A stretch of DNA of 63,150 nt from an uncultured Candidatus Saccharibacteria bacterium (GCA_964532005.1 CAZHER010000006.1:1-63150); one strand, 5' to 3'; shown: positions 24-52,853, numbered from the stretch's first letter. Numbers and translations are program-made. Notes: generated by a model not told the origin, from the letters alone.

Positions 24-3000
24 GTGGGTGTAGTACAAGATTTTCATGCTGAATTGAAGCACCGTAAAGACAAGGGAATGTCCGAATATCCCTTAATCAA
101 TGACTATGAATTTAGACGAAAATTAGAAGAAAAGCTTGTCGAGATTTTTGAAACAAAACTTGAATCAGACTTAGACGAAGCACTCGATTTTTACAAACAA
201 CTAGGAGGCAAAGAAATATCGTATCAGGTTAAGGAAAGGCTCGGTAAATGGGCTGACCACAATCAGGACCGGGAGGAAGAACTCAAAGAGAAGATTTTGG
301 AATTTCCTGGACTCGCATACGATTTGTTGTATCAAAGAAGTTATTCGGGTAGAAATTTTTATAAACCAGAAGACTTGGTAGTTGTAGCCGAAAGTGCCTT
401 AGATAAAGGAGACGAAGAAGGAATAAATAAATGTATGCAGGCGCTGCGTAAGGAGCATATGTTGATTTTGTCACAGAATGAAGGTATAAGAAAAAAGATA
501 TTTGATTATTTGCTAGAAAACGATTATTTAGATAAAATCTCGGATAATTTTGAGTTTTTCCGCGAAGATTTTGAAGGATTGCCAAAATACAAAAAGGAAA
601 CACTCATAGGTAAAATGTACGAAACAAAAGGCTCTCTGCTATACAATCTTAGGGACGTTATTGCCTTAAATGAAACCCAGAAGCGTGCTATAGCAGATTC
701 TTGGTTTATGCAAGGAACGTACTATAAAATTTTGGACAGAGACAATATAGACTTTTTTGATATTAGCCAAAAAACTGTTGATGCCGCTTTGCGAATATGC
801 TTAGAAAAAGATTTAGGAGGGACTCTTGAACATTATGTTAAGACGTCAGGTGTAAAACTAACCGAAAAACAAAGAACTGAAAGTTTGGCGACACTGAGAG
901 AAAGAAAGAAATACGAACTAATTTTAAAAAGAGATGTTATTGATGCCTTAGATCTAGATCGCAGTACAGTTGAACGGGTTTTTGCGGAATTTATCGAAAT
1001 TGTGAAAAGCAGTTACGGTAGCAACTTCACGGAGGACGACCCCGAAAAAGATCAATATAGACGGAGCTTTGAGCTGGTTGAAACGTCAGCCATTCCTCCC
1101 GAAGCAATGGCGCTTTTGAACCAACTAAAAATTGAAAATTCCGGGTATCACCCGTTGCTGCAAGAGCAGTTAAAAAAACATATCTCAGGGGACAACCCAT
1201 TTTTTGCTTACCAGCGATTAAATATTATTAGCGGGAGCATGCATGAAGGACTTGACTTTAGACATGTTTATCAATCTAAAAAATTTGGGCAATTAGTAAA
1301 ACAGGATCCAGAACAAGCTCGGGCCGTAGCGGGCAAAGTCACCAAACACCAATGGCTTCTTCATCATGAATTCCAGTTTAGCGATTTTTTGGTAAGCGAT
1401 GATATTTTGAATCAGATCGAGGAAGGTATGCAAAATTTTCCTAAGATGCATCTTTCAAGAAGAAATTTAGAATCTTTACTGGAGAAACCACAGAATACTG
1501 TACGTACGGCAGAATTAATAACTAAGTTTCGTGAGTTGTCGTTGAATTCCCATAGAGAGATTGTAGATTATTTATTGGAAAAAGGAGATGGGGCTGAAAG
1601 TTCGATAAAATTTTTAGAAGCATTGCATGCAAAAGTGGACAGAATTCCAGAAAAATTCGTTCCATATATGAAATTAGTTGACAGTAATCCAGAAAGTCTA
1701 GACGCGGTATTGGAAATAGTTGACAAATCCCCAATGCTATTTACAAGTCATGAAGTTTACAAAACAATTATTGGCTATGGAAATTTTAGGGCTGGTTTTA
1801 TGATCGAGCATCCCAATGAAAGCAATTATATAAATGAGCTTCGGGATTTGGTCAATAGAGTGGGTACGCAAATTAAGTTTTCCTTTGACGATCTAGATAC
1901 AGCAGAGTCAGAAATGAACGAGCATCAGAAGGAAGAATATTATGATTATGTAGTAGATCGAATCAAGCTTGGCTATGCCGGAGAAAATATCGACTTTGTA
2001 GATATTACTCGAGTTGCTGGTATGATGGGTCGACTGACAAAAGAGCAACAACAAAAAGCCATACTAAAACTAGAGTCGCTTAGTATGCCCGAGCGTGCCA
2101 GTTACCGAATGATAAGTAGTCCAGTTGAAGAATTAAATGAACAAAACTGGAAACAAGTTTTAGCGGTTTATATTGCTATTGGAGGTGAAGATCGAACATA
2201 CCACAGTCCGGAGGTAACGAATTCAATTAAAGCATTGTTTTCTGAGGAACAGACAGAAAATAAGGAATTTTGTTTACAGAAAATTAGAGAGCAGTGGTTG
2301 ACATATTTGGAAAATCCAGAACAGGGCTTTCCTTATGACGCAGCAGTTATTGGTGATACAGTTGAAGAATACGAAGGGGCAGGACCTCTGAAATATATAG
2401 AATCCTTGTCTGGGGTAATTCATGAAATGAAAGAAATAGCAAAGTCTGGCCAAATACCTGATCGTACTAAAGATGAGATAGTTGCTGGATTAAAAATGCT
2501 GGAAGAAAGATTTAGTAAAGAAAAGTGGAGCGAAGAAGACAGAGCCGCATTCTATAATTTGTCCAAAGATGTTATAAAAGCAGCCCCTAGTCTATTTTCA
2601 AAATTTACTGAACTATTTTCTGAATTTGACCCAAAATCGTTAAAAACTTTTAACAGAGATAATTTTCCTTTATACCAAGCCGAGTTAGTAACTTTACAGA
2701 ACAGGGATACATGGAGTGAAGAAATAAAATACTCCCCTAAAGAACTGGTCGAGTTTCGTAGGATAATTGAGAATTTAATAAAAGATCTCCGATCTGCAGA
2801 GAAAGGTGAACAAAGAGGAATTTTATTTGAACATAAATCAAAGTCATTAGATAGAATTCAAAATAATTTCAAAGAACGTTTTGGGTTAGAAAAAATTCCC
2901 GAGGAGTTTGGACCCGAAAAAATTCGTGGCATCCAAAATATCATCAGATACATGGGCAATATTAATGATCGCGATGCGGATAAAGAAAATAAGTTGACTT

Positions 3001-4484
3001 TCTACTTAGGGCTGATGCTCAACGAAGAGTGGGATGACTTTAGACAAGGTAAGTCGGTAGATATAGAAAGCTATTTTTCCGGAGAAAAACTAGATTTCAT
3101 TCAAGAATTTATGAGAAGCCGGCAAGAGAAGAGCAGTCTTACCCCTGAGAATTTAGGGATTCAACCAGATCAAATGGCAGAGTTCCAAGCAATTTTACAG
3201 GATGAAATCTTGTCCCAAGTAAGGGGAAATGTTGAAACTATTGATTTGAAACTAGGGACTGTAATGAGAAGTATTGAAGATTTGTCCGATGAAGATATCT
3301 ATCAAGACGATCAAGAAAAAGCGGTTTTTAAGTTTACGCAGGAGCATGGGTCTTTAACTGGAAAAGTCTTAGCAAAATTGTATCAGCAAACCTCTGGCAA
3401 AAAGGATGCCTTTTGGACTGAAGAGGAGAGCGAGGTAAAAGACGGTCTACGGAGAATTTTTAAGATAGAATCTTGGAGTACAGAGAACATCAAGTCAGTT
3501 CAAGACAGCGTTAAAACTCCAGGGCTGGTAACAGGAATTATCCGTGATATTGAAAATAGAAATATTCCAGACATGGTTAAGGAATTAGAAGGTAGGCTAC
3601 ATCCACCTGACAGTATTGTAGAAATATTTAATCGTCTAGGAGAAGATTTTGAACAAGAGTCTGGAGCGATTGCTTTGAACCAAGACTTAGAATATTTACA
3701 TAACATTATAGTTAAAAATGAAAAGAAGCTTACACCAGAAGAGAAAGCCGACCTTGTAAGTTATTTGGATAAGATTGAGGAACAGATGGCAGTTTTAGAA
3801 AAGACGCTGGAAGATATTAAGCAATCATTTTTGAAAGTGAGCAAGTCTGCTCATACTCAAAATAATGAAATTTTACAGGATCGTCTTAAAGAAATTGAGC
3901 GGATAATTAATTCTGACAATACCTCAACTGTTATTAATACCAGAATGACTAAAGACATGAACCTGGTAATTGAAAATATGAGACAATGTCTGGGTTGTTT
4001 AAAGAAAGAAGTTAATAATGATACAACTTTGACTTTCGGCGATTCAAATAAGTTTTATCTGATGAGTCAGGGAAGCAGGGAAACAGGGAGCGTTGCTGAC
4101 CAAATAGTGTTCTTAGATCAAGTGGAACACGAAAATGGAGAGAAAGAAATGTCTTTTATCGTTGACCGCTTGTACGGAATTCGCTCAGCAGATGTTTTAA
4201 GCAGCAATGTAGTGGCAATTCACAAAAAGTATAAGTTGTTAAAACAGAGATTTCCAAATGCCAAGATAAGCATCGTCGTCACAGATGCAGCTCTAACAGG
4301 AATAGATAAGCAGTCCGTGATTAGTACATTAGAAAAAAACAGCGGTGGCGCAGTTAACGCAGTCCACGAGCCAAAAATAAATGTAAATATTTCCGCATCC
4401 GCAGCAGCTGACCACTATATAGAATTTGGCGGGGGAGCAAGGATTACTGGTTCTAGAGAAGTCGCCGGACTGGTGATACGTTAA
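24..4484 (+). CDS. Very large hypothetical protein (>=1486 aa), probably 5'-truncated by the window edge
   Basis: Long ORF. The frame is also open from position 3 to 23 (KKLESDP), so the true start may lie upstream of the window. Acidic/helical composition, with a C-terminal region carrying RQCLGC, DRLYG and DHYIEFGG. No family recognised. Confidence 0.85.
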   Translation: MGVVQDFHAELKHRKDKGMSEYPLINDYEFRRKLEEKLVEIFETKLESDLDEALDFYKQLGGKEISYQVKERLGKWADHNQDREEELKEKILEFPGLAYDLLYQRSYSGRNFYKPEDLVVVAESALDKGDEEGINKCMQALRKEHMLILSQNEGIRKKIFDYLLENDYLDKISDNFEFFREDFEGLPKYKKETLIGKMYETKGSLLYNLRDVIALNETQKRAIADSWFMQGTYYKILDRDNIDFFDISQKTVDAALRICLEKDLGGTLEHYVKTSGVKLTEKQRTESLATLRERKKYELILKRDVIDALDLDRSTVERVFAEFIEIVKSSYGSNFTEDDPEKDQYRRSFELVETSAIPPEAMALLNQLKIENSGYHPLLQEQLKKHISGDNPFFAYQRLNIISGSMHEGLDFRHVYQSKKFGQLVKQDPEQARAVAGKVTKHQWLLHHEFQFSDFLVSDDILNQIEEGMQNFPKMHLSRRNLESLLEKPQNTVRTAELITKFRELSLNSHREIVDYLLEKGDGAESSIKFLEALHAKVDRIPEKFVPYMKLVDSNPESLDAVLEIVDKSPMLFTSHEVYKTIIGYGNFRAGFMIEHPNESNYINELRDLVNRVGTQIKFSFDDLDTAESEMNEHQKEEYYDYVVDRIKLGYAGENIDFVDITRVAGMMGRLTKEQQQKAILKLESLSMPERASYRMISSPVEELNEQNWKQVLAVYIAIGGEDRTYHSPEVTNSIKALFSEEQTENKEFCLQKIREQWLTYLENPEQGFPYDAAVIGDTVEEYEGAGPLKYIESLSGVIHEMKEIAKSGQIPDRTKDEIVAGLKMLEERFSKEKWSEEDRAAFYNLSKDVIKAAPSLFSKFTELFSEFDPKSLKTFNRDNFPLYQAELVTLQNRDTWSEEIKYSPKELVEFRRIIENLIKDLRSAEKGEQRGILFEHKSKSLDRIQNNFKERFGLEKIPEEFGPEKIRGIQNIIRYMGNINDRDADKENKLTFYLGLMLNEEWDDFRQGKSVDIESYFSGEKLDFIQEFMRSRQEKSSLTPENLGIQPDQMAEFQAILQDEILSQVRGNVETIDLKLGTVMRSIEDLSDEDIYQDDQEKAVFKFTQEHGSLTGKVLAKLYQQTSGKKDAFWTEEESEVKDGLRRIFKIESWSTENIKSVQDSVKTPGLVTGIIRDIENRNIPDMVKELEGRLHPPDSIVEIFNRLGEDFEQESGAIALNQDLEYLHNIIVKNEKKLTPEEKADLVSYLDKIEEQMAVLEKTLEDIKQSFLKVSKSAHTQNNEILQDRLKEIERIINSDNTSTVINTRMTKDMNLVIENMRQCLGCLKKEVNNDTTLTFGDSNKFYLMSQGSRETGSVADQIVFLDQVEHENGEKEMSFIVDRLYGIRSADVLSSNVVAIHKKYKLLKQRFPNAKISIVVTDAALTGIDKQSVISTLEKNSGGAVNAVHEPKINVNISASAAADHYIEFGGGARITGSREVAGLVIR

Positions 4485-9317: not shown

Positions 9318-12300
9318 ATGAACAACAGTGTAATTGCAAACTTAATAGGTTTGAAATCCAAGGTTGCTTCCCGCATGAGCTGGAAAACTGGAGGAATTTT
9401 GCTTGCCGCTTTGGCTGCAATATTGGTCCTGGTTCCACGCTCTGGTAGCTTTACCAAAGCGGAAAGCTGTCCAAACCCTCCTGGCCACGCCGTATTAAAT
9501 TACTGGCCGGTCAGCTTTGACCAGTCTCAAACTGGCTGTACTGATTTTACCACCTTAGATGGTAAAATTGTTGGTACTCCTCGATATTCCACTAGCCAAG
9601 CAGACCACGATGATGGTTTGCAAGTTGCTGATGGACAAGAAGTATATATGCTTGCTTACGTTCACAACGGAGCTGCTGTAAACGGTGATCCAAACCAGAC
9701 TACAGCTCGCAACGTTCGTTTTAACGTGCAAATCCCTACTTCCGCTGGTTCTGATCATACTATCAACGCTTCATGGCGCGGTGACAACACTAATACTGCT
9801 AGTGGAAGTTTTACTTTGCATACTCCTGCAAACCGCACTGTTGAATTGGTTCCAAACAGCGGACAGTTGTTTGACGCTTTCGGAAATCAGATTAGCTCCG
9901 GAATTGACTTGAGCTCAGGCTCTTACACTTTGGGTGACCAAACTGCTTGTTTTGAATATGCACGTTTCTTGCGCTTCAAAGTTCGCATGGGAAACCCTCC
10001 TGGAACACCTGCCTTGACTATTACCAAACAGGTTCGCAATGTTACTCAAAATGGAACTTTCTCCGGATCTGCCAACGCAATTACCGGAAATACTGTTGGT
10101 TACCAAATTAAAGTTAAAAATACTGGAACCGCCCCTGCGCTAGCTACAACTGTTCAAGACAACGGCACTCCAGGTACTACATATGTAAATGGAAGCCTTC
10201 AGGTTTCCAACGGTGGTACTGGCAGCGGTATTCCTGGAACTATTACTTTGGGAACATTAGCTCCAAATGAAGAGGTTACTATTACTTACAGCGCCACTGT
10301 AACTGGCGGCAACGGTACGTACACCAACACTGCAACTGCACAAGCAACTTCAGTTCCTTCTGTGAATGCTAGTGCAACCGTAACTGTTACCAATATTCCT
10401 ACCAGCGACAATGCTGAATGTATCTCTGTTTCATTGAACCCTCAAAGTCCATTCGATGCCGGACAAAGTTTTACCGGTACTGTTCGTGTACGAAACAACG
10501 GCACAACCACTTGGACTTCTGGCACTTACTCTTTAGGCGCTCAGCCTAATGACAACCGTTGGGGTGTTGACCGTGTAAATCTTGTTGGTACCGTGCCTCC
10601 TGGCGGCGAAGCAACATTTACTATTTCTACTCAAGCTCCTTCCACCCCCGGAACTTATAGCTTTGGTTGGCAGATGGTAAACGGAAACACTTACTTTGGT
10701 CCTGTATGTTCTACCCCAGTGGTAGTCCGTACTCCCCCCGTTACTACTGACAATGCAGAATGTGTAGCCGTAAGTTTGGCTCCAGCATCCCCTTTGGATC
10801 CTAACCAAGGGTTTACTGGCACTATAAAAGTGCGCAACAGCGGTACCACCACCTGGGTTCCTGCCAACGGATATGCTTTAGGTTCACAAAACCCAGCTAA
10901 TAATACTACTTGGGGAACCAACCGTATTTCATTGCCTATTTCAGTAGCTCCTGGACAGGAAGTCATAATGAGTATTAACACTCAAGCTCCTGCAACCCCT
11001 GGAACATATAATTTTGCTTGGCAGATGGTAAAGAACGGCAACTTCTTTGGAGCCACTTGTGCCACACCAGTTGTAGTTAAGACACCTCCTGTGTTAACCA
11101 ATGATGCACAATGTATTGCTGTAACCTTAAACCCTGCTTCTCCTTTTGATCCTAATCAAGGGTTTACTGGCAGTATTAAGGTTCGCAATATTGGTACTAC
11201 CACCTGGGTTCCTGCCAACGGATATGCTTTAGGTTCACAAAATCCACAGGACAACAATACATGGGGAACTAATAGAATTGCTTTGCCTTACTCAGTTGCT
11301 CCTGGACAGGAAGTCATAATGAGTATTAACACTCAAGCTCCTGCAACCCCCGGAACTTACAGCTTCGCTTGGAAAATGGTTCAGAACGGCAATTTCTTTG
11401 GCCCTACTTGCGAAACTCCTGTTGTAGTTAAGACACCTCCTGTGTTGACTGACAACGCAGAATGTATTGCTACTACTTTGAGTCCAGTAGGTCCTTACAG
11501 TCCGAACCAAGGATTTATTGGAACTATTCGTGTTCGCAACAGCGGTACCACCACTTGGGCCCCCGGAACTTATGCAATTGGTTCTCAGAACCCACAGGAC
11601 AACACTACTTGGGGTACCAACAGAATTACTTTGAACTCTTCTGTAGCCCCTGGTGGTGAAGCAACCTTTACTATTTCTACCCAAGCTCCTGCAAATGCTG
11701 GTACTTACAGTTTTGCATGGCAAATGGTTAAGACCGGCGCTTTCTTCGGTGCTGTATGTCAAACCAACGTAGTTGTTCAGAATGTGGTTCCTCAAACCAC
11801 CACCTTGTCTATTACTAAGTATGTTCGCAACCTTACTGACAACACCAGTTTTGAAAAAACTGTAAATGCAGATAACGGTGACCGTGTACAATATGAAGTA
11901 AAAATTCGCAACATTGGCGATATTACTGCCAACGATGTGATTATGACTGACAACGGTACTTCTGGCACATCTTTTGTAAGCGGTTCCATTGAAATTACCG
12001 GAACCAGCAACTTGTGGTCCGGAACTATTCCTGGAACTTTGAACCTTGGCAATTTGGCCAAAGGCGCTGAAATCACCATTCGCTACACAATGACTGTAAC
12101 TGGCGGCAACGGTACTTACACCAATACCGCTACTGCTGATGCTTCTAATACCGCAAGCGTATTCGATACTGCTCGCGTAGTTGTTGACCAAGGCTGTACT
12201 TCAAATTGTGGTGGCGGAGGTGGTGGAACTTCCCGAAGATTGTCAGTGGACAAGTTGGTCCGCAACCTGACTACTGGTACCTCTTACAGAGATACCACCA

Positions 12301-13154
12301 GCGCCAGCAACGGCGACCGCGTACAGTTTGAAATCACTGTTCGCAACACATCCAGCGCTCGCATTAACGACGTAGAGCTTCGCGATACTTTGCCTAGCGG
12401 TTTGCGTTTGGAATCTGGCAGTATCGAAATCGACGGCGACGAAGTTTCATCTAACTCCTTATCTTCAATTGACCTAGGCAACCTTGCCGCTCGTGATGAA
12501 AAAGTTGTTACTTTAATAGCAATTGTTGATCGCGAAACCAGCGGTTCATGTTCTACAAGAAGCTTGCAGAACATTGCTCGTGCTACCGGCGACAATGCCC
12601 GTGCAGATCAAGATGATGCTTCTGTTACCGTAGGTTGTGTACAAGGTTCTAATGTCAACTTGTCTTTTGCCAAACGTGCTTGGAACGATACCAAGAATGT
12701 TGATGCAACTACAACCACCGCTTCTCGTGAAGACTTCATTACTTACACTTTGACCGTAACCAACACTGGCAACTCCACAGCAACCAACTTCGTAATTACT
12801 GATGACTTGTCCGGAGTACTGCCATATGCTGATATGGTTGACCGCAACGGCGGAACTTTGAATGGAAACGTGTTGAGCTTCCCAGGAATGAATATTCCTG
12901 CAGGCGCAACCGTAACTAAAACTTTCAAAGTTAGAATAAAGCACAACTTAAGCCAGTCTTTGACCTATCAGTTGCAGAACACTTATGGCAACACTGTTAC
13001 TATAAATGTAGGATCAGTTCAAGGCACAAGTATCTTTGTAGCTCCAACAACTGGGGCTGCCGGAACTTCTGCTGCAGCTTTCGCAGGACTTATGACCCTT
13101 GGGTTTGTAGCTTACAGAAAGCGTGAATTCCTGAAGCGCTTAATTATGGCCTAA
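9318..13154 (+). CDS. Large secreted/cell-surface protein: DUF11-type Ig domains, four NBR1-Ig-like repeats, C-terminal sorting-like anchor
   Basis: N-terminal signal/TM, four DUF11-like units (e.g. LTITKQVRN..VGYQIKVKNTG), four repeats with VRNxGTTTW and FxWxMV motifs, C-terminal APTTG + hydrophobic helix + RKR tail. Confidence 0.85.
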   Translation: MNNSVIANLIGLKSKVASRMSWKTGGILLAALAAILVLVPRSGSFTKAESCPNPPGHAVLNYWPVSFDQSQTGCTDFTTLDGKIVGTPRYSTSQADHDDGLQVADGQEVYMLAYVHNGAAVNGDPNQTTARNVRFNVQIPTSAGSDHTINASWRGDNTNTASGSFTLHTPANRTVELVPNSGQLFDAFGNQISSGIDLSSGSYTLGDQTACFEYARFLRFKVRMGNPPGTPALTITKQVRNVTQNGTFSGSANAITGNTVGYQIKVKNTGTAPALATTVQDNGTPGTTYVNGSLQVSNGGTGSGIPGTITLGTLAPNEEVTITYSATVTGGNGTYTNTATAQATSVPSVNASATVTVTNIPTSDNAECISVSLNPQSPFDAGQSFTGTVRVRNNGTTTWTSGTYSLGAQPNDNRWGVDRVNLVGTVPPGGEATFTISTQAPSTPGTYSFGWQMVNGNTYFGPVCSTPVVVRTPPVTTDNAECVAVSLAPASPLDPNQGFTGTIKVRNSGTTTWVPANGYALGSQNPANNTTWGTNRISLPISVAPGQEVIMSINTQAPATPGTYNFAWQMVKNGNFFGATCATPVVVKTPPVLTNDAQCIAVTLNPASPFDPNQGFTGSIKVRNIGTTTWVPANGYALGSQNPQDNNTWGTNRIALPYSVAPGQEVIMSINTQAPATPGTYSFAWKMVQNGNFFGPTCETPVVVKTPPVLTDNAECIATTLSPVGPYSPNQGFIGTIRVRNSGTTTWAPGTYAIGSQNPQDNTTWGTNRITLNSSVAPGGEATFTISTQAPANAGTYSFAWQMVKTGAFFGAVCQTNVVVQNVVPQTTTLSITKYVRNLTDNTSFEKTVNADNGDRVQYEVKIRNIGDITANDVIMTDNGTSGTSFVSGSIEITGTSNLWSGTIPGTLNLGNLAKGAEITIRYTMTVTGGNGTYTNTATADASNTASVFDTARVVVDQGCTSNCGGGGGGTSRRLSVDKLVRNLTTGTSYRDTTSASNGDRVQFEITVRNTSSARINDVELRDTLPSGLRLESGSIEIDGDEVSSNSLSSIDLGNLAARDEKVVTLIAIVDRETSGSCSTRSLQNIARATGDNARADQDDASVTVGCVQGSNVNLSFAKRAWNDTKNVDATTTTASREDFITYTLTVTNTGNSTATNFVITDDLSGVLPYADMVDRNGGTLNGNVLSFPGMNIPAGATVTKTFKVRIKHNLSQSLTYQLQNTYGNTVTINVGSVQGTSIFVAPTTGAAGTSAAAFAGLMTLGFVAYRKREFLKRLIMA
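10407..11790 (+). repeat. Four intragenic tandem domain repeats (342-351 nt period)
   Basis: Units begin at 10407, 10749, 11100 and 11451. Units 2 and 3 share long identical nucleotide blocks (e.g. CTCCTGGACAGGAAGTCATAATGAGTATTAACACTCAAGCTCCTGCAACCCC at 10948 and 11299). Confidence 0.9.
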
Positions 13155-18754: not shown

Positions 18755-19669
18755 ATGGAAAACTACGAAATCATACTATTTTACAAATACGTACGCATAG
18801 AAGACCCGCATGCTGTTATGAAATGGCAGAAAGAGCTGCAAACCAAACTAGGTCTGAAGGGTAGGACCATTGTGGCCTCAGAGGGTATTAATGCCACCAT
18901 GGAAGGAACAAAGGAGAGTATTCAGGCTTATTTGCAAGAGTTTTTAGCAGACCCAAGGTTTGTGAACACTCATATCAAAAGAAGCGAAGGCACAGGCTCT
19001 GCATTCCCTAAAACTTCTGTAAAGGTACGGAACGAAATTGTGACATTGGGGCTTGGGACAGTGTGCGATATTGATCCTAACCTTTTAACCGGAAAGCGTT
19101 TGTCTCCAGAGCAGCTGCACCAGTGGATTGCTGAAAGAAAAGAGTTTTATATCATTGATATGCGCAACGCATACGAACACTTGGCTGGTTATTTTGAGGG
19201 TTCTATTTTACCGCCAATGGAGAATTTTAGAGATCTTCCAAAATTCATTGAATCAATTTCGCATTTGAAAAACAAAACAGTTCTGACTGTGTGCACAGGA
19301 GGAGTGAGGTGCGAAAAGGCTTCTGGATACCTATTGTCACAAGGGTTTGAAGATGTATACCAATTAGACGGAGGTATTGTTTCGTATATGGAAAAATATC
19401 CTAATGAAAATTTCGTAGGAAAGCTTTACGTGTTTGACAATAGGATACTAATGGGATTTTATACAGATGATCCTAAACATGTCGCTGTCGGGATTTGTAG
19501 TATTTGCGGTAAACATTCGGAAAGATTTACCAACTGCGTTGATCCCGAATGTCATCGTCAGGTTATTGCCTGCCAGGAGTGCGAGATAAGCGAAGGACAG
19601 AATTTTATTTGCAAGGAAGGATGCAAAGAAGAGGCTTTGTCAGGCAAAGCACAAAGAGCTGCTAGCTAG
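18755..19669 (+). CDS. trhO: Rhodanese-domain tRNA U34 hydroxylase (TrhO/YceA family)
   Basis: LFYKY, GRTIVASEGIN, IDMRNAYE, CTGGVRCEKAS, VYQLDGGIVSY and LYVFDNR motifs, with C-terminal Cys cluster. Confidence 0.88.
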   Translation: MENYEIILFYKYVRIEDPHAVMKWQKELQTKLGLKGRTIVASEGINATMEGTKESIQAYLQEFLADPRFVNTHIKRSEGTGSAFPKTSVKVRNEIVTLGLGTVCDIDPNLLTGKRLSPEQLHQWIAERKEFYIIDMRNAYEHLAGYFEGSILPPMENFRDLPKFIESISHLKNKTVLTVCTGGVRCEKASGYLLSQGFEDVYQLDGGIVSYMEKYPNENFVGKLYVFDNRILMGFYTDDPKHVAVGICSICGKHSERFTNCVDPECHRQVIACQECEISEGQNFICKEGCKEEALSGKAQRAAS

Positions 19670-20171
19670 GATATTTATGAAACCCTAGCAGGTACGCTAG
19701 GTAGGTGAATGCCGGGTGCAGTATATAAGTTGCCGCGATTCCAAGAATAACAGTTTTTGTAGAAAAAATTTCTAAATACCAAAATATCAACCCCGCGGTA
19801 ACAATATAGTCTCCATGGTCTACCAGCGGCATAAATTGTCCGTCATAATAGCCTGCGCGCCGTTTTATAAAGCTGCCAAGAGCATGGCCCAGATAAACAC
19901 TTAAGCCTAGAATAAAACCGTTAGTCAGGTCAGAGTCGGTATAATGCGCTATCAAAAGCCCTGAAGCTAAGGCCACAATAATACCTGGTATTGTTGTGGA
20001 GTTTCCCAATATTCTTCTGGAGTCATATCGTAAGGTTCTTCCTCCGTCTAGGGGCGTGTCGAAATTTTTGAATTTTGGGAAAAATTTACCGATCACATAA
20101 AGCCCGTTTAAAGAAATATTAACTATCCAGCAGGGTGCGGCAAATAGGAGTGCATTAAAAATTAAAGCCAT
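19662..20171 (-). CDS. CDP-archaeol synthase (CarS/DUF46)-like membrane protein
   Basis: PLDGG..DSRRILGNSTTIPG, GHALGSFIKRR and GQFMPLVDHGDY match the CarS-type cytidylyltransferase signature (PxDxG..G..KT, GD..SFxKRR, P.xDQ.D), with variant residues. Confidence 0.75.
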   Translation of the reverse strand: MALIFNALLFAAPCWIVNISLNGLYVIGKFFPKFKNFDTPLDGGRTLRYDSRRILGNSTTIPGIIVALASGLLIAHYTDSDLTNGFILGLSVYLGHALGSFIKRRAGYYDGQFMPLVDHGDYIVTAGLIFWYLEIFSTKTVILGIAATYILHPAFTYLAYLLGFHKYPS

Positions 20172-21627
20172 TTTTCCCAGACAGGTTTATTACAAAAAAA
20201 GTTTTTTGGCCTTGTAATTTAAAATATTCTTCAACAACGTTTATCACTCTTGGTGTGCATCGCTTTATTGCAAACTTTATTTGATAACGGTACAGACCCG
20301 AATTTTGCCCGATTAGATTTAACTGTTTTATTGTTGCCATTCGGTTAGGGGTAAGTGTAAGCGGGAGCTCCGTAGGTGTAATAAGATCGAAAGAAATAGT
20401 TTCATCGGGGTAGGTAGGGAAGCAGTTAACCCAGGGAACATTAACAGGACCCAAGTTGCTTAGTAAGGCGTTGTCAGAAATTAATTTTTTCAAAGGAACC
20501 TGACCGTCAGGATAAGCGTTGTAGATAGAAAGATTGTTTATAGACTCAATTTTATCCCATTTGATATGGGGAGTTTTTGCAGGGAGGTTGTATAGCCCAA
20601 CGAAAGCTCCATCCGATGGCAGTTTTTGCAGAGAATTGAGGTAGCCATTAAAGTTTTGTGCTAATGGTACATATGCAAATGTAATGGATAGGATAATTAA
20701 TAAAACCCCCAATCTTTTATTGTCTCCAGATTTGTACCAATAGATAAGAGTAAGCAGTATAACAATTAAGGTGGCTGACATGTACAAATTTAAAACGTGG
20801 TCGTTGGACATTTGAGAGAAATAAAAATAAATCACAGCTGTCAGCGCGGCATAAATAATTATTGGCAAAAGACTGAGGGCAAGTTTTTCATTCTTAGGGA
20901 TTTTTTTCGTAATAAACTTACTGCTGAGCAAAATGAACATCAGAGCAGAAAGAGCAATTGGAGCTTCCCTGTTGAAAACTCCACCATCTATGAGGTTTTT
21001 TAGTAGTGTAAAAGTTGTGACCGCATATAAAACAAAGAAAACCCAGGGTCGATTTTTTTGTTCATGAAACAATTCGCTGAATTTTATAATTGACAAAATC
21101 AAGCATGCTAGACCCAGTATGCCGCCCAGCCAAAACCAGAAGTTTGGAATAAGACCAATAAAAGCCCAGCCAGTATCAATATTCTCTTGGACTTGGTAGC
21201 CAAAAAATTTCAACAAAAGGCCATTAAAGCCTTTCAGAATATGGCTGTGTAGCAGGGCGGTGCTAGAAATTTCGCCATTATTGAAGGTGATTACAAAATC
21301 AGAAATACTGACCCCGATTTTTCTAAAATAGGCAATAAGTAAGATAAGGTTGTACGCAAAAGCAGTAATAAATGAGGTTAATAACCACTCCGCTCTGATT
21401 TTATACTTTTGTAATTGCTTAGCGATATAAGGCAGAGAGACTAAGCCCAATACAAGAACGTAAATTAGAAATAAAACCACTTTTACCGTACTGCGTCCAC
21501 CAGCGAAAATGTTAACAACACCATGAATCATTACATTCCCCAGCTCCGTATATGCAAACAAAACATAAAGCAAGAGCGTTGCTCCTGCCAGTGCCATCAA
21601 TGATTTGTAGCTGTATTTTTTTATCAA
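20155..21627 (-). CDS. Polytopic membrane protein (~10 TM) with C-terminal soluble domain, hypothetical
   Basis: Multiple hydrophobic helices, polar motifs HSHILKG, NIDTG and KNLIDGG. The TTG start overlaps the pilin stop (TTGA). Confidence 0.75.
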   Translation of the reverse strand: MIKKYSYKSLMALAGATLLLYVLFAYTELGNVMIHGVVNIFAGGRSTVKVVLFLIYVLVLGLVSLPYIAKQLQKYKIRAEWLLTSFITAFAYNLILLIAYFRKIGVSISDFVITFNNGEISSTALLHSHILKGFNGLLLKFFGYQVQENIDTGWAFIGLIPNFWFWLGGILGLACLILSIIKFSELFHEQKNRPWVFFVLYAVTTFTLLKNLIDGGVFNREAPIALSALMFILLSSKFITKKIPKNEKLALSLLPIIIYAALTAVIYFYFSQMSNDHVLNLYMSATLIVILLTLIYWYKSGDNKRLGVLLIILSITFAYVPLAQNFNGYLNSLQKLPSDGAFVGLYNLPAKTPHIKWDKIESINNLSIYNAYPDGQVPLKKLISDNALLSNLGPVNVPWVNCFPTYPDETISFDLITPTELPLTLTPNRMATIKQLNLIGQNSGLYRYQIKFAIKRCTPRVINVVEEYFKLQGQKTFFVINLSGKNGFNF

Positions 21628-22181
21628 AATGAAGAGCCTAATTGGTGGTTAATAAAACCAAATGTTGGCACGCCAGCGTATGTCATGTTCCATGTACTAG
21701 ATGCAACTTCCATATTTTCTGCATACACAGCATATTCTTCTTCACCAGCAATACATCCGCACCAGTTGGAAACAGCCCCCGGCGGCATATATACATAAGA
21801 AAAATATTTACGAGTTGAGCCATCATAGCAACTTTCCCCGCACGGATCCTCGGGCAGCTTAGCTATGTATTGTGATAAATCACCTTCCAGCTCTTTCCAC
21901 GCACCAGAATTTACCTCTGTTACTGTGCTGCAACTTGAGTCTCCTCTGTCTGGGGCGCAGTTCATGGTTCCGACGTATGGAGCATGTCCATTGTCATTTA
22001 TATAAAATTGAATTGCTGTATTTAACTGCCTCAAATCAGCTACTCTTCTAGTGTCTCGAGCTTTTTTTCTAGCCCCGGTCAGTGAAGTCATAACAATAGT
22101 AGAAAGCAACCCCAAAATGGCTATTACCACCAACAATTCAACTAGGGTAAATCCTGATTGGTTTTTTTTGAGTATTCTCAT
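21624..22181 (-). CDS. Type IV pilin / pseudopilin
   Basis: Class III signal KKNQSG|FTLVELLVVIAILGLLSTIV, ARKKARDTRRVADL helix and LPEDP motif. Confidence 0.9.
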   Translation of the reverse strand: MRILKKNQSGFTLVELLVVIAILGLLSTIVMTSLTGARKKARDTRRVADLRQLNTAIQFYINDNGHAPYVGTMNCAPDRGDSSCSTVTEVNSGAWKELEGDLSQYIAKLPEDPCGESCYDGSTRKYFSYVYMPPGAVSNWCGCIAGEEEYAVYAENMEVASSTWNMTYAGVPTFGFINHQLGSSF

Positions 22182-22184
22182 AAG

Positions 22185-22523
22185 TTACTTGCCTTTGTTG
22201 GTGTTTGAATTTTTTGTCGGAACTGTTTTGCTTCCGGTGTTGCTAGATTTGCCAGAATTGCTGGCAGGCTTAGTGCTACTATTAACAGATTTGACTGGCT
22301 TTTTTACCAACTGCGGTTTTGGTGCTCTAAATGAATATGCTACCAGGACCTGAATTCCTATTAAAACTACTAAAAGACCTACCAGTAAATAAAACTTTTT
22401 TGTTAAAGCAAAACGGCTGGGAGGGGGAATGTAAGCTGCTTCCTGTTGTTGTATTTCTTGCTCGTGCTTGTCAAAGAAATGGCTGAAATCCACTTCTTTG
22501 TCTGGCGGAGGCTGTGGAGACAT
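22185..22523 (-). CDS. Small single-TM protein with Ser/Lys/Asn-rich tail, hypothetical
   Basis: TM FYLLVGLLVVLIGIQVLVAY. TATAAT lies 6 nt upstream of the ATG; first gene of the pilin operon. Confidence 0.7.
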   Translation of the reverse strand: MSPQPPPDKEVDFSHFFDKHEQEIQQQEAAYIPPPSRFALTKKFYLLVGLLVVLIGIQVLVAYSFRAPKPQLVKKPVKSVNSSTKPASNSGKSSNTGSKTVPTKNSNTNKGK

Positions 22524-22618
22524 GGACTAATTATAATAAAAAAGCGCAAAAACAACAAATTTTATGGTATAATTATATAAATTTTAGGGCCGATGCACTG
22601 ACGATGAAACAAAAATAA

Positions 22619-24040
22619 ATGCCAAATATTTCTCCATGGATCACTCAACTTAATCGTACTAGACCTGCTGACAAGCTTGTTCAGGATCTAGAAACAGACG
22701 TAGCTATTATTGGTGCTGGTATTGCAGGCGTGTTTACTGCATATTACACTTTAAAGAATACTTCAAAAAAAGTTGTGTTGATCGAAGGGTATAGAGTCGC
22801 ACACGGTGCCACCGGTCATAATGCAGGTCAGGTGGTGAGCTATTTTGAGCGGCCACTGTCCGAATTGGTCAGTGAGTTTGGTATAGAAATGACCAGCAAG
22901 GGACAACTGGCAGTTGATTCTGCATGGGGACTTTTAGAGGAAGCTTTGGAGGATGCAGGTTTACAAACCCCAGTCGTACAATTCACTGGTTATGCCGGAT
23001 ACTCCACTTTCGAACAAGTTATACATAGAATTGAAGACAGCGAGCTGAGGGTTCGAATGGGTTTGTCGTCAAAGCCAATCATGTTAGCAGAGGAGTCAGG
23101 ATTTCAAAATAAAATCCCTGAGGAATACCAAAAATTATATACTTTGTTGAAACAAAGGGATATTTTAGCTTTACTAGAATCGGACAATCTGAAGTATGTT
23201 GCTGCATCGTCTTCCCGTAAAGGCTGTACCAACAGCGCCATGCTATGTGAAGAGCTTATAGGCTACATGCTAGCCAAGTATCGAGACCGGTTTGTTTTAG
23301 CCGAAGAGACCCCGGTAAAAGTTTTACGCTTACAAAGAAAACGAGCAGTTTTGGAAGCACAGAACAATATTATTTCCGCAGAGCGAGTAGTGTTGTGCAC
23401 GAATGGGTTTGAAAATATACACATTGAAAATGAGGTGGGAGTGGACATAGATGGCAGGTACCATGAGCAAGTAGAGGGGGTAATAGGTTATATGGCAGGA
23501 TATTTGGACAGTTTAAATAAAAATCCTACAGCAATAGGTTATTTTTCAGAAAATCATTTAACTCGGCAAGATCCATATTTTTATTTAACTCGCAGAGCTT
23601 ATGAAGCCGAGGAGAATCAGCGGCATAATTTAATATGCGTAGGGGGCCCTGAAACAGTGCTAGAAGACAAAGCAATTTATTCCAGAGACCGTTTATACCC
23701 AGCTCAAGCTCAACAAGAAATCGATACATTTTTAAAAACTGATTATAAGGATAGCCCAAAAAAGGAAATCAATTATCAATTTCAGTGGCACGGTTTAATG
23801 GGTTACACAAAAAACGGAGTTAGAATGATTGGGGAAGAGCCGTGCAATAATGTGCTATTATATAACCTGGGCTGCAATGGAGTAGGTATTTTACCTTCAA
23901 TCTATGGAGGCAAAAAAATCTCCGACATTCTAGCCGGAATTCCTCAAGAAGAATCTATTTTTGATATTCGGGATTTGCGCTGTTATATAAAAAATGAACC
24001 TTTGGTAGAGACTGCAAAGAAAGTAGAAAAGAAAGAATAA
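22619..24040 (+). CDS. FAD-dependent oxidoreductase (DadA/DAO family)
   Basis: DVAIIGAGIAG, GATGHNAG, VVLCTNG, WHGLMGYT and GCNGVG motifs. Confidence 0.85.
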   Translation: MPNISPWITQLNRTRPADKLVQDLETDVAIIGAGIAGVFTAYYTLKNTSKKVVLIEGYRVAHGATGHNAGQVVSYFERPLSELVSEFGIEMTSKGQLAVDSAWGLLEEALEDAGLQTPVVQFTGYAGYSTFEQVIHRIEDSELRVRMGLSSKPIMLAEESGFQNKIPEEYQKLYTLLKQRDILALLESDNLKYVAASSSRKGCTNSAMLCEELIGYMLAKYRDRFVLAEETPVKVLRLQRKRAVLEAQNNIISAERVVLCTNGFENIHIENEVGVDIDGRYHEQVEGVIGYMAGYLDSLNKNPTAIGYFSENHLTRQDPYFYLTRRAYEAEENQRHNLICVGGPETVLEDKAIYSRDRLYPAQAQQEIDTFLKTDYKDSPKKEINYQFQWHGLMGYTKNGVRMIGEEPCNNVLLYNLGCNGVGILPSIYGGKKISDILAGIPQEESIFDIRDLRCYIKNEPLVETAKKVEKKE

Positions 24041-35486: not shown

Positions 35487-36383
35487 ATGACCAGATTCAT
35501 TAAGCACCCAACAGCTTCGAACCTATACCCTACTGCGATTTTACTTTTTGCCGGCGTGGTTTTAGTGGTTTCCATTCTGGGATTTTTGCGTCCCGTGTTC
35601 TCCGGTTCAGTTGTTTTACCCCAAGAACTGAGTTTGGGCTTCTTGAGAATCCATTATTATGGATTGATACTCGCAGCAGCTGTGTTGACAGCCAGGTTTT
35701 TTGCTTTGAGGAGAGCAGAGCAATATGGTTTGACCAGAGACAGGGCAGACAATATTATTTTAGTTACGATCTTGGCTGGTTTACTCGGTGCTCGTCTGTA
35801 TCACGTGGCCTCGGAGATTCAATTTTATTTTGCCAATCCCCAATTCATTTTTGCTTTCTGGCGCGGTGGGCTGAGCATTTATGGGGCTGTGTTAGGCGGA
35901 GCTTTAAGCTTGGCTTTTTTTGCTTGGAGGTCGGGGTGGTCTTGGTTACGGTTCAACAATTATTTGAATTGGCTGACTTTTAGCATTTTGGCAGGGCAGG
36001 TATTAGGACGACTAGGAAATTTGTTCAACTATGAAGCTTATGGTATTCCTACTGCATTGCCTTGGAAAATGTTTGTGCCAATAGAATTTCGATTGCCACA
36101 AATGTTGTTGGACCCATTTTATCATCCATGGTTTTTGTATGAATCTTTGGCCAATTTGGTGATTTTCTTTGTTCTCTTAAGATGGAAGCGAGACTCTGCT
36201 CAGCTTTTCTTGTGGTATTTGCTGCTGTATAATACAGTCAGATTCGGGCTTGAATTTTTAAGGATTGATAGTGTTTTTGTTGGCCCAATCAGGCTGAACA
36301 CCTTGGTTAGCTTAGGGTTGGCCTTGGTAGCAGGAGCTCTGCTAATTAAATTTACAAATGGAACAGATCGCAAAATATCATAA
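35487..36383 (+). CDS. lgt: Prolipoprotein diacylglyceryl transferase
   Basis: IHYYG, GARLYHV, RGGLSIYGA, GRLGNLFNYEAYG, HPWFLYES and RFGLEFLR motifs. Confidence 0.93.
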   Translation: MTRFIKHPTASNLYPTAILLFAGVVLVVSILGFLRPVFSGSVVLPQELSLGFLRIHYYGLILAAAVLTARFFALRRAEQYGLTRDRADNIILVTILAGLLGARLYHVASEIQFYFANPQFIFAFWRGGLSIYGAVLGGALSLAFFAWRSGWSWLRFNNYLNWLTFSILAGQVLGRLGNLFNYEAYGIPTALPWKMFVPIEFRLPQMLLDPFYHPWFLYESLANLVIFFVLLRWKRDSAQLFLWYLLLYNTVRFGLEFLRIDSVFVGPIRLNTLVSLGLALVAGALLIKFTNGTDRKIS

Positions 36384-44168: not shown

Positions 44169-44305
44169 ACTAGTTTTGTTTTAGATATTTATTTCAAAAA
44201 ATTTGTTGGGAATATCGGTTTTATTGTAGCAGAAAAAGCTATTTTAATAAATTTCTGCGTCTTTTGCCCCTTTCACAAAACCGGAAAAATATATACAATA
44301 CCAAT

Positions 44306-44884
44306 ATGAATTTAGACGCAGTTTTTCTGATAGGGCCGCAAGGTTCAGGCAAAGGGACTCAAGCCAGGATTTTGGCTGAAAAGCATAATTTATTTTATTG
44401 GGAGATGGGCGGCGTGCTAAGAAATTTAGCAACTGAACTTACTCCTTTAGGACAGGAAGTAAAAGAGCTAATTAATAGCGGTGTTTTATTGACCGATGAT
44501 TTACTATTGTCGGTTTTTAGGGATCGTATGAGCGTGATTCCAAACAACAAAGGTGTAATTTTCGACGGGGTTCCTCGCCGTATCGGACAGGCAGAATTTG
44601 TTCTGAGTTTTTTGAAGGAACAGGGCAGGTCTAAGTTTGCAACTTTGTTCATAGATCTGCCAAAAGAGGAGTCAATGAGCCGTTTATTATTACGAGCACA
44701 AAAGGAAGGTCGTAAAGATGACACAAAAGAGGCAATAGCATATCGTTTACAGCAATATGAGGAAGACACGGTACCGGTCTTGGACTTTTTAAAATTAAAT
44801 TCGGATTTTATAACAATTGATGGAAACCAGCCAATAGAAAAAGTCACGCTAGATATAGAGCAGGCTTTGGCCAAATATGAATAA
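44306..44884 (+). CDS. adk: Adenylate kinase family protein (LID-less), copy 1
   Basis: GPQGSGKGTQA, FDGVPR, R..RKDD motifs. ATG 44306 lies 6 nt after TACAAT. Confidence 0.8.
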   Translation: MNLDAVFLIGPQGSGKGTQARILAEKHNLFYWEMGGVLRNLATELTPLGQEVKELINSGVLLTDDLLLSVFRDRMSVIPNNKGVIFDGVPRRIGQAEFVLSFLKEQGRSKFATLFIDLPKEESMSRLLLRAQKEGRKDDTKEAIAYRLQQYEEDTVPVLDFLKLNSDFITIDGNQPIEKVTLDIEQALAKYE

Positions 44885-45506
44885 AACACAAAAGCATCCC
44901 CCCATCACCATAATTCTTTTAGGAGATCCTGCTGCCGGCAAAGCCACACAGGCTGAATTTATATCTAGTGAATACAATTTACTAGATTTTGACATGGGAA
45001 AAGAGCTCGCTAAGCTTAGACGGCGCGATGCAAAAGTTAACAAAAACTTACAAACCAATAACGACAAAGGAAAGCTAACTCCTACCATAATTGTGAGAAA
45101 TATTTTGAAGGAAACCATTGCAAAAGTACCAGCTAAAAAAGGAATTTTGTTCGATGGTCATCCAAAGATGCTGGGAGAAGCGCAATTGGTTAGCCGGCTC
45201 TTGAAAAAGCAGGGGAGAATAGCACCTTTGGTAATATATTTATCTATTCCTATTGAAGAAACAATAAAACGAATGGAAGATCGTGTTGGCTATTTTTCAG
45301 GGAAATATGGTAAAAGGGCAGACGACAGCAATCAGGCAATGAAAAACAGAATTAAATACTATAGAACAAATATTGCTGAGGTTATAGATTTTTTTTCAAA
45401 GAAATATGAATATCATAAAATTAGTGCTTTGGGTACCAGAAAGCAAGTTCGTACCCGGTTGGAAAAAATTATCAAAGCATATCTCACAAATTTAAGCCAT
45501 GAGTAA
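44877..45506 (+). CDS. Adenylate kinase family protein, copy 2 (divergent P-loop)
   Basis: GDPAAGKATQA, FDGHPK and RADD motifs. Confidence 0.78.
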   Translation: MNKTQKHPPITIILLGDPAAGKATQAEFISSEYNLLDFDMGKELAKLRRRDAKVNKNLQTNNDKGKLTPTIIVRNILKETIAKVPAKKGILFDGHPKMLGEAQLVSRLLKKQGRIAPLVIYLSIPIEETIKRMEDRVGYFSGKYGKRADDSNQAMKNRIKYYRTNIAEVIDFFSKKYEYHKISALGTRKQVRTRLEKIIKAYLTNLSHE

Positions 45507-51965: not shown

Positions 51966-52853
51966 ATGTCTGAAATACAAGACAAATTAAAGGTGGCAGC
52001 AGAGACTGCGGTAATTGCCGGAGAAGAGTCGGGATTAGCCGTAAAAGGATTTTTTACTTCTATGGCCCGGTGGCAGAAAATTGTTTTTTTTGCCGGATTA
52101 ATTTTGATTATTCCGGCTTATTACGGCGCTTACTATAGCTCTCACTATTTTGCCAAATCTAGTTTGAACGACAAGCTAATAAAAGCCCATACAGCTCATA
52201 TTGAAACCAGGAATGTTTCTGTCACAGAGGTAACAATCCTACCTGTCACAGCAAATCAATATACCGCTTATTTTCAAGTGACAAATCCAAATTTGGATCT
52301 GGGCGCCGTCAATGTTCCATATACCGTTGATTTTTATAATGAGAATAAGGAACAGATTTATTCTGCTAACGGAACTTTTTACATAATACCTGACCAAAAA
52401 AAATATGTTGTCGTACCAAGAATTGATAGTACAGAGGAGATAGCCAAAGCTGAAGTAAAATTGGGTGATGTTAAATGGCAAAAGAAGCCTGATTTACCCA
52501 AAGTTGAATTTAAAACTCCGAACCCTGAAATATTCGACCAGGATATTACCACTGTGTCTCAACTGACAGTTGAAGGGTCTATTATCAACGATAGCGAGTA
52601 TAAAATCAAAAAGACAAGCATTGTTTTATTGGTTTATGGTAAGACCAATAGGATCGTGGGCATAAATGTTAGGGAAGAAAGAGATATTGTAGCTTTTGGC
52701 AGAAGGGCATACAAACAAACGTGGCCGAATCTGTCCTCATCCGATATAAGCAGGGTTGAAGTTTACACTGATGTCAATATATTGGACAAATCAAATTTAG
52801 AGTTGAGCAGTGATAATTTAACTCCAGTCTCAGATATTCCTGACCTAAGGTAG
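51966..52853 (+). CDS. Membrane-anchored protein with Ig-like (FxLYD-type) domains, hypothetical
   Basis: N-terminal TM, VTNPN..YTVDFY and VEGSIINDS..IVLLVYG beta patterns. Confidence 0.65.
   Translation: MSEIQDKLKVAAETAVIAGEESGLAVKGFFTSMARWQKIVFFAGLILIIPAYYGAYYSSHYFAKSSLNDKLIKAHTAHIETRNVSVTEVTILPVTANQYTAYFQVTNPNLDLGAVNVPYTVDFYNENKEQIYSANGTFYIIPDQKKYVVVPRIDSTEEIAKAEVKLGDVKWQKKPDLPKVEFKTPNPEIFDQDITTVSQLTVEGSIINDSEYKIKKTSIVLLVYGKTNRIVGINVREERDIVAFGRRAYKQTWPNLSSSDISRVEVYTDVNILDKSNLELSSDNLTPVSDIPDLR

Follow-up and report, generated by a model that had tools for sequence, protein, structure and literature searches.

Pilin-modifying enzymes of the TfpO/PglL type, represented by TfpO (PilO) of Pseudomonas aeruginosa 1244 and by PglL of Neisseria, are polytopic membrane proteins whose genes directly follow the pilin gene and which draw on a lipid-carried donor at the outer face of the membrane; in strain 1244 the C-terminal Ser of the pilin serves as acceptor. 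TfpW, which belongs to the group IV pilins of P. aeruginosa, is likewise encoded next to its pilin and has, as do the GT-C (glycosyltransferase fold C) enzymes EmbC, ArnT and PglB, a multi-helix body, an outer soluble domain and conserved acidic residues in the outer loops. In PptA/EptA and in the pair eptA (mcr-3)-dgkA, an outer-face transferase moves a phospholipid head group to the pilin or the envelope and is paired with an inner-face lipid-recycling enzyme. Among described systems, Pseudomonas pilA-tfpO and pilA-tfpW and the pilin phosphoform transferases of Neisseria appear closest in layout and logic to a four-gene cassette that we analysed in a stretch of 63,150 nucleotides (nt) from an ultrasmall, uncultured Candidatus Saccharibacteria bacterium of wastewater (GCA_964532005.1, CAZHER010000006.1:1-63150; this whole stretch is referred to as the window). 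The cassette encodes a small single-pass membrane protein, a type IV prepilin, a polytopic membrane protein, here called X, and a relative of CarS, the archaeal synthase of cytidine diphosphate (CDP)-archaeol. Patescibacteria, which constitute a very large and mostly uncultured share of bacterial diversity, grow attached to other microbes, rely on lipids from their hosts and contact these hosts via type IV pili. A literature search found no paper describing a cassette of X, CarS-like protein and pilin; a preprint on a 'novel pilus system' in the candidate phyla radiation (CPR) concerns donor-strand pili unrelated to it (PMC13278184).

X shares with TfpO and PglL the position of its gene directly downstream of a pilin gene; outer-face action with a lipid-carried donor is what we propose for it, and the pilins described here keep Ser-Phe/Tyr at the C-terminus. 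Unlike TfpO and PglL, X lacks a Wzy_C domain and has no sequence or fold match, and to our knowledge neither of them has a partner resembling the CarS-like enzyme. With TfpW and other GT-C enzymes X has in common the pilin-adjacent gene, the multi-helix build, the outer soluble domain and the acidic outer-loop residues, but it has nine helices, matches no GT-C family of Pfam (PMT_2, YfhO, ArnT-like and others) and carries no acidic motif in its first outer loop. The CarS-like protein resembles CarS of Aeropyrum pernix (5GUF) and CdsA of Thermotoga maritima in family (PF01864), in its five helices, in the SFxKRR...DxxD core and in its basic cytoplasmic loops, whereas it falls below the equivalog cut-off, has exchanged a Lys for Thr and an Asp for His, stands in no archaeal lipid context and is tied to X and a pilin. 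The parallel with PptA/EptA is put forward as an analogy, and one X homologue is fused to an alkaline-phosphatase-superfamily domain; the window X itself has no sulfatase or alkaline-phosphatase domain, and its partner belongs to the cytidine triphosphate (CTP)-transferase superfamily and is not a DgkA-type kinase.

Linkage of X, the CarS-like gene and the pilin

The sequence-only reading had placed four tightly joined genes on one strand at 19662-22523, and open reading frames (ORFs) and raw sequence confirm all of them, together with their junctions:

22523..22185, minus strand: gene for the small single-pass membrane protein, 112 residues (ORF list and raw sequence)
22181..21624, minus strand: type IV prepilin gene, 185 residues (ORF list and raw sequence)
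21627..20155, minus strand: gene for protein X, 490 residues, TTG start (ORF list and raw sequence)
20171..19662, minus strand: gene for the CarS-like protein, 169 residues (ORF list and raw sequence)

The first two genes are separated by a 3-nt gap (22182-22184), the prepilin and X genes share a TTGA start/stop overlap (21624-21627), and the X and CarS-like genes overlap by 17 nt (20155-20171). This layout is operon-like as far as gene positions can tell, and the arrangement is not due to chance, because it recurs amid unrelated flanking genes.

To count such recurrences we took as distinct contexts loci with different flanking genes (n=11); an alignment-based harvest gave one genome locus and two short metagenome loci, and a word-indexed search for homologues contributed a single new protein. 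The X and CarS-like genes are adjacent, and usually overlapping, in 10 of the 11 contexts. A CarS-like gene lies next to X for all five X queries (P0002, P0003, P0008, P0166 and L008), and X lies next to the CarS-like gene for seven of the eight CarS-like queries (P0013, P0026, P0033, P0044, P0039, P0041, P0031 and P0020). Where the partner carried no annotation, a profile built from 112 members of the family identified it as X (E 6e-78 to 4e-144). The order X, then CarS-like, is typical of Saccharibacteria-type loci and is found in the window, in L001, L002, L003, L004, L005, L006, L008, L014 and L015, and in the locus with a downstream pilin; L008 is syntenic with the window. In L007 and L011-13, where the flanking genes differ, the CarS-like gene precedes X. 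The cluster of the L011-13 protein has a member named from a metagenome-assembled genome of Minisyncoccia, and the adjacency persists down to 25% identity in X and across two classes of Patescibacteria. The sequence-only reading had named a lack of co-occurrence of the membrane protein and the carS-like gene elsewhere as grounds for refuting it, and the linkage seen here does not refute it.

A pilin of a single orthologous group adjoins the pair in 8 of the 11 contexts, so that the pilin linkage, too, extends beyond this genome. The pilin gene lies downstream of the pair in one context and is duplicated in L006. We conclude that the core of the cassette is X plus a small CarS-like enzyme, a conserved module of Patescibacteria; in Saccharibacteria-type genomes a single dedicated type IV pilin has been added to this core, and a subclade has the small single-pass protein as well.

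The sole exception to the linkage of X and CarS-like gene is L016, in which an H-type CarS-like gene (as defined below; 49% identical) stands solitary between recX and an M48 peptidase/LemA pair and also has no pilin within 5 kb. At L004:3004-3540 (GCA_034680565.1, a 349-kb contig), a signal-anchored protein of 178 residues, rich in Glu and Asn and devoid of a prepilin motif, is encoded upstream of X and the CarS-like gene; standing in the place of the pilin, it may be an alternative substrate.

Properties of the three conserved proteins

The TTG start of X is supported by the L001 orthologue, which begins at an ATG and reads MKKYNYTSL where the window X reads MIKKYSYKSL. The database call of 480 residues from Met11 is probably too short; residue numbers below nevertheless follow the 480-residue numbering. 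X has no match among the sequence profiles of Pfam, NCBIfam, PHROGs, PADLOC or the Protein Data Bank (PDB). Of the 1.84 billion representatives in a library clustered at 50%, a profile search matched 399 at E<=1e-3, which amounts to about 400 clusters in metagenomes; 263 reached E<=1e-10, and among the matches listed the relatives are mostly of full length (400-510 residues). When 57 diverse relatives were compared with Pfam, no family emerged, apart from scattered single weak matches and one protein, P0158. P0158 (882 residues, encoded outside the window) is an X protein with a C-terminal Phosphodiest/alkaline-phosphatase-superfamily domain (45 bits), a type of enzyme that transfers or cleaves phospho-groups outside the cell. 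The fusion is either a Rosetta-stone hint of outer-face phospho-group chemistry or the product of two merged gene calls.

AlphaFold2 modelled X with high confidence from an alignment of 112 sequences (predicted local distance difference test, pLDDT, 95.1; predicted template modelling score, pTM, 0.93); a model from eight sequences reached a pLDDT of 74.8, and its Foldseek search against the PDB was negative as well. The better model displays nine membrane helices, a long third loop with a beta-hairpin and a helix, and an alpha/beta domain of about 160 residues at the C-terminus. Foldseek retrieved no PDB match for it at E<=1e-3 and nothing significant in BFVD; all-helical membrane folds are hard for Foldseek, and a very remote relation to known folds could escape it. 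The best, non-significant PDB match is the GT-C enzyme EmbC (E=0.024, probability 0.14, template modelling (TM) score 0.10), and the C-terminal domain alone gives weak ferredoxin-like matches (NikR, eEF1B-alpha, ACT-like). No internal repeat was detected in the membrane domain by hhalign on halves and thirds (probability <=2.3%). X is thus a real, widespread and unnamed family without a detectable known fold.

Across the 112 members K122, D204, G205 and G206 are invariant, and H117, H119, D141, G143, C392 and C447 are conserved in at least 97%; the resulting motifs are HxHxxK, DxG and DGG, and the Lys, His-x-His and Asp-Gly-Gly among them are kept even in relatives only 17% identical to the query. 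The polar loop motifs HSHILKG, NIDTG and KNLIDGG, which had been picked out from the window sequence by itself, are present and contain the conserved core residues of the family (H117, H119, K122, D141, G143 and D204-G206). Counted over the family, loops 2, 4, 6 and 8 are positively charged, while loops 3 and 5 and the C-terminal domain are negative. Hydropathy and this charge bias predict an N-terminus inside and a C-terminus outside. The charge bias would also put the Cys pair and the conserved polar residues at the outer face, where the head of the pilin sits. The two conserved Cys residues, C392 and C447, are putatively of disulfide type and belong to the predicted C-terminal outer domain. 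Outer loops 3 and 5 hold the conserved acidic residues, and the first outer loop reads H..N.FAGGRS..K and contains no acidic DxD or ExD motif. Taken together, X is probably an outer-face enzyme or a metal- or ligand-binding site.

X fits none of three known classes that were considered. A GT-C-like transferase, as tentatively suggested by the sequence-only reading, is not borne out, since fold, sequence family and first-loop acidic motif all fail for it: neither the query nor the 57 relatives match a GT-C family, and the Foldseek check proposed for the 490-residue protein, run on the pLDDT-95 model, yielded no significant fold match. For a Wzy_C O-oligosaccharyltransferase, no Pfam Wzy_C domain occurs in the query or the relatives scanned. 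An EptA/PptA/LtaS-type transferase is likewise not supported, the sulfatase/alkaline-phosphatase domain being absent from X and present in only P0158 among the relatives scanned.

The 169-residue protein matches PF01864 (CarS-like) over residues 2-165 with 66.9 bits (cut-off 22), contains five helices and can be aligned with 5GUF, the structure of A. pernix CarS (E=5.5e-11); its CarS-like identity, as first read from the sequence, thus holds above the gathering score. It scores only 79.8 bits against the NCBIfam CarS equivalog NF003114, which requires 148. We aligned it with the canonical members P0046, P0048 and P0049, the L011 partner and the 5GUF fragment. The pilin-linked clade retains the SFIKRR and DHGD core, whereas the Lys of the Lys-Thr loop motif is replaced by Thr ('NSTT') and the Asp of GDxxxSFxKRR by His ('GHALGSF'); in 5GUF, P0046, P0048, P0049 and the L011 partner the canonical active-site residues are intact. 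Its sequence places the window protein in the CTP-transferase superfamily, as a distinct subclade or subfamily that we term H-type. Since the Minisyncoccia-type L011 partner keeps all canonical residues, the partnership of X and CarS-like protein is older than the substitutions.

From its position, we infer that the replaced Asp is equivalent to Asp219 of T. maritima CdsA, which is one half of an Asp-Asp dyad holding the Mg/K centre; the equivalent residue is Gly in active eukaryotic enzymes, and an Asn mutant in Streptococcus mitis is a loss-of-function allele (PMC7018664). Because active eukaryotic enzymes tolerate Gly at this site, the exchange for His need not kill activity. Reviews describe a cytoplasmic cavity in which CarS and CdsA use CTP (PMC9385802), and the basic conserved loops of the CarS-like protein predict a cytoplasmic active site here as well. 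No gene of GGGPS or DGGGPS type was found at any locus or among the window ORFs scanned (those of at least 100 residues up to 48 kb, plus 51966-52853). At L015:6131-6775 (minus strand), a gene for a CDP-alcohol phosphatidyltransferase (214 residues) is convergent to and about 600 bp from the CarS-like gene of a cassette that also has the pilin and X, with a Cys-rich lipoprotein-like gene between the two.

The 185-residue protein scores 38.9 bits with the Pfam N_methyl model PF07963 (cut-off 21.2) and 32 bits with TIGR02532 (cut-off 16.3), by which its earlier naming as a type IV pilin stands. The prepilin cleavage site lies between QSG and FTLVE (the sequence reads QSG followed by FTLVELLVVIAILGLL), and a hydrophobic helix follows this Gly/Phe-x-x-x-Glu motif, as in a class III signal peptide. 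The best named model is GspG (49.9 bits, below the GspG cut-off). The 185-residue protein is the only prepilin of the 63-kb window (21624-22181), and among the scanned window ORFs there is no pilus machinery, that is, neither a prepilin peptidase nor an assembly ATPase or platform.

All pilins adjacent to X form one orthologous group and are 41-75% identical to the window pilin. HAP and DPCG..C are invariant in the group, as are two earlier Cys residues. The tail that precedes the C-terminus diverges, yet Ser followed by Phe or Tyr occurs within the last three residues of all 11 X-adjacent pilin sequences read; the window pilin ends in ...GSSF, and the ends in the group are GSSF (four times), FSSF, FSSFR, AGSF (twice), FGSY, ATSF and NSYN. 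Mean pairwise identity is 45% for the pilin, 43% for the CarS-like protein and 29% for X. The pilin is accordingly the most conserved of the three, the opposite of the usual pattern for exposed major pilins.

Candidate functions of the cassette

We tentatively favour the explanation that X modifies the pilin, or the cell surface, at the outer face of the membrane by means of a lipid-borne donor, and that the CarS-like enzyme makes or recycles this lipid. It is favoured because X and the CarS-like gene are linked and accompanied by a conserved pilin with a fixed Ser-Phe/Tyr end; because the near-invariant residues and the Cys pair of X are predicted to lie outside with the pilin head; and because the CarS-like protein keeps the SFxKRR/DxxD core and aligns to 5GUF, and X is fused to a phospho-domain in P0158. 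In such a mechanism the CarS-like enzyme, with its conserved loops in the cytoplasm, would use CTP to make or regenerate a membrane-lipid intermediate, candidates being a CDP-activated or phosphorylated glycerolipid or polyprenol, and this intermediate would then reach the outer leaflet. There X, with His-x-His-x-x-Lys, Asp-x-Gly, Asp-Gly-Gly and the disulfide-type domain exposed, would use the lipid on an extracytoplasmic target. The co-encoded pilin would be the most likely target, probably at its C-terminal Ser-Phe/Tyr, and other surface molecules could take its place where the pilin is absent. The transferred group may be the head group of a phospholipid, the lipid left over being recycled with CTP in the manner of eptA-dgkA pairs; it may also be a sugar from a polyprenyl carrier or a phosphatidyl or lipid-phosphate group. 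We infer each element of this scheme, namely the enzymatic nature of X, the shared lipid, the pilin as substrate and the group transferred. Read in this way, the cassette would be a variant of a pilin or surface modification system built from a new protein family.

Several observations weigh against this explanation. The predicted active sites face opposite sides of the membrane, which demands a flipping step; X has no recognisable catalytic fold and is called an enzyme from conservation alone; and, with the canonical Lys and Asp lost in the Saccharibacteria-type clade, the CarS-like protein may carry out a chemistry other than cytidylyl transfer. The linkage is also incomplete, in that the CarS-like gene at L016:5001-5519 has no X within 5 kb, and the pair occurs without any pilin in L007 and L011-13, with secreted or giant surface proteins as neighbours, and in L004, with the non-pilin anchored protein, which excludes the pilin as a universal substrate. 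No PF01864 entry was found among the listed entries of an annotation table for the cultivated Saccharibacterium S. epibionticum, which left no orthologue to compare with Tn-seq essentiality in that species, and the sequencing runs that contain the cassette sequence are wastewater metagenome DNA only.

If a lipid-derived modification is indeed made, X would represent a new enzyme family for protein modification and would offer a concrete handle on how scavenged lipid is used at the host interface. A bolder version, which we consider improbable, is that X is a new-fold family of outer-face transferases that attaches a CTP-activated lipid, such as a phosphatidyl or another lipid-phosphate group, covalently to the pilin at its penultimate Ser, and to other surface proteins in other Patescibacteria. 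Were pilin-Ser lipidation true, protein lipidation would gain a previously unknown kind, and the archaeal-type CTP-transferase fold a new use, in bacteria unable to make their own lipids. Whatever its function, the cassette unites a conserved pilin, a widespread unannotated membrane family of about 400 clusters without a detectable fold and an altered archaeal-type lipid-activating enzyme; the X family merits a name, and its conserved His, Lys and Asp residues and CarS-like partner make it directly testable.

Of the other explanations, lipid salvage survives best, although we regard it as rather unlikely. Here X would take up, flip or trim host lipid outside the cell, the CarS-like enzyme would re-activate it with CTP for phospholipid synthesis and membrane building, and the pilin would be no substrate but merely co-regulated for host contact. 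The lipid dependence of Saccharibacteria fits this proposal, as do the pairs without pilin in L007 and L011-13, in which the CarS-like partner is canonical, and the phosphatidyltransferase gene near the L015 pair. However, salvage does not explain why a pilin orthologue with a fixed Ser-Phe/Tyr end is kept in 8 of 11 contexts despite changes in gene order, nor are the altered active-site residues of the pilin-linked CarS-like clade expected of a housekeeping CDP-lipid synthase. X moreover lacks a detectable transporter-like internal repeat, and its large outer domain, Cys pair and constellation of His, Asp and Lys look more like catalysis or macromolecule binding.

Glycosylation, which we judge improbable, would make X a highly divergent enzyme of GT-C-like or O-oligosaccharyltransferase-like kind, passing a sugar from polyprenyl phosphate to the pilin, and the CarS-like protein a CTP-dependent polyprenol kinase. 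The order of pilin and polytopic enzyme is that of Pseudomonas pilA-tfpO and pilA-tfpW, the conserved face and C-terminal domain of X lie outside as in GT-C enzymes, and the CTP-transferase superfamily includes CTP-dependent lipid kinases such as dolichol kinase. EmbC, the top though non-significant Foldseek match, is a GT-C enzyme, but for a model with a pLDDT of 95 the match is at noise level. The lack of GT-C and Wzy_C families in the query and 57 relatives also argues against glycosylation, as do the FAGGRS loop without DxD or ExD, the nine helices of X compared with the usual 11-13 of GT-C enzymes, and the absence of any glycosyltransferase or flippase gene from all 11 contexts.

We are slightly more sceptical still of a non-enzymatic X, acting as membrane chaperone, anchor or assembly platform for the pilin, with a CarS-like protein that tunes the local lipid or is a structural partner. 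Lys, Asp-Gly-Gly and His-x-His are absolutely conserved down to 17% identity, which is typical of an active or metal site and not of a scaffold, the pair persists where there is no pilin, and SFIKRR and DHGD are under strong constraint in the CarS-like clade. Such a role would nonetheless agree with the absence of a known catalytic fold in X, with the two canonical residues lost from the CarS-like protein and with a pilin that is unusually conserved, the sole one in the window and encoded away from pilus machinery genes.

A genuine archaeal pathway, with the 169-residue protein as a true CDP-archaeol synthase on an isoprenoid ether lipid and X handling an archaeal-type lipid, as the sequence-only reading had also entertained, is very improbable: although CarS models and the CarS crystal structure are the best named matches and one source names a homologue 'CDP-archaeol synthase', the equivalog cut-off is missed, the Lys and Asp substitutions separate the protein from canonical CarS, archaeal lipid genes are missing from all loci and the scanned window ORFs, and the hosts of Saccharibacteria are Actinobacteria with ester lipids.

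Promoter, accessory gene and wider window

Two further features flank the cassette:

22530..22535, minus strand: TATAAT -10-like box, 6 nt 5' of the first ATG (direct sequence reading)
19634..19650, minus strand: weak terminator-like hairpin just past the CarS-like gene (consensus scan only)

The box, read on the minus strand as 22535-22530, and its 6-nt spacing confirm what had been noted at first inspection. The L001 relative has the same box at the same spacing, and the L006 relative has TGATATAAT 7 nt ahead of its first ATG. A scan with the sigma-70 consensus gave no -35/-10 pair at the start of the operon, so that the promoter call relies on the -10 box. With the box in this position, the 5' end of the transcript would be very short or leaderless. 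Ahead of the first gene of the cassette, in the window (22524-22540) as upstream in L001 and L006, a -10 box stands 6-7 nt from the ATG without a Shine-Dalgarno sequence; this spacing and the missing Shine-Dalgarno suggest leaderless or near-leaderless transcripts in this lineage.

On its upstream side the cassette is bordered by a divergent gene for a flavin adenine dinucleotide (FAD)-oxidoreductase that starts at 22619, and on the other side by a convergent plus-strand gene of the rhodanese family, which ends at 19669 and overlaps the stop of the CarS-like gene by 8 nt. The hairpin at 19634..19650 is located within the 3' end of this rhodanese-family gene.

The N-terminal part of the 112-residue protein is acidic and contains a conserved D-[FL]-S-[HN] motif; a single transmembrane helix and a variable tail rich in Lys, Ser, Thr and Asn follow. 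The protein matches no family in Pfam, NCBIfam, PHROGs or PADLOC. Orthologues are encoded directly upstream of the pilin in L001, L008, L003 and L015 and are absent from L002, L005, L006 and L014. The protein is an accessory part confined to a subclade.

Elsewhere in the window, the plus strand encodes the prolipoprotein diacylglyceryl transferase Lgt (35487-36383, 190 bits), and because Lgt is present, this lipid-dependent bacterium spends phosphatidylglycerol on lipoprotein anchoring. Two adjacent, overlapping genes of the adenylate kinase family (44264-44884 and 44877-45506, plus strand; ADK, 100 and 92 bits) are tandem paralogues that perhaps differ in nucleotide specificity, and a supply of cytidine monophosphate (CMP) or CTP would be relevant to a CTP-using lipid enzyme. 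Two large plus-strand genes complete the picture: one for a giant protein of 1486 residues without a Pfam match (24-4484), and one for a protein of 1278 residues with repeated N_BRCA1_IG, DUF11 and CARDB domains (9318-13154), which is likely to be a surface protein.

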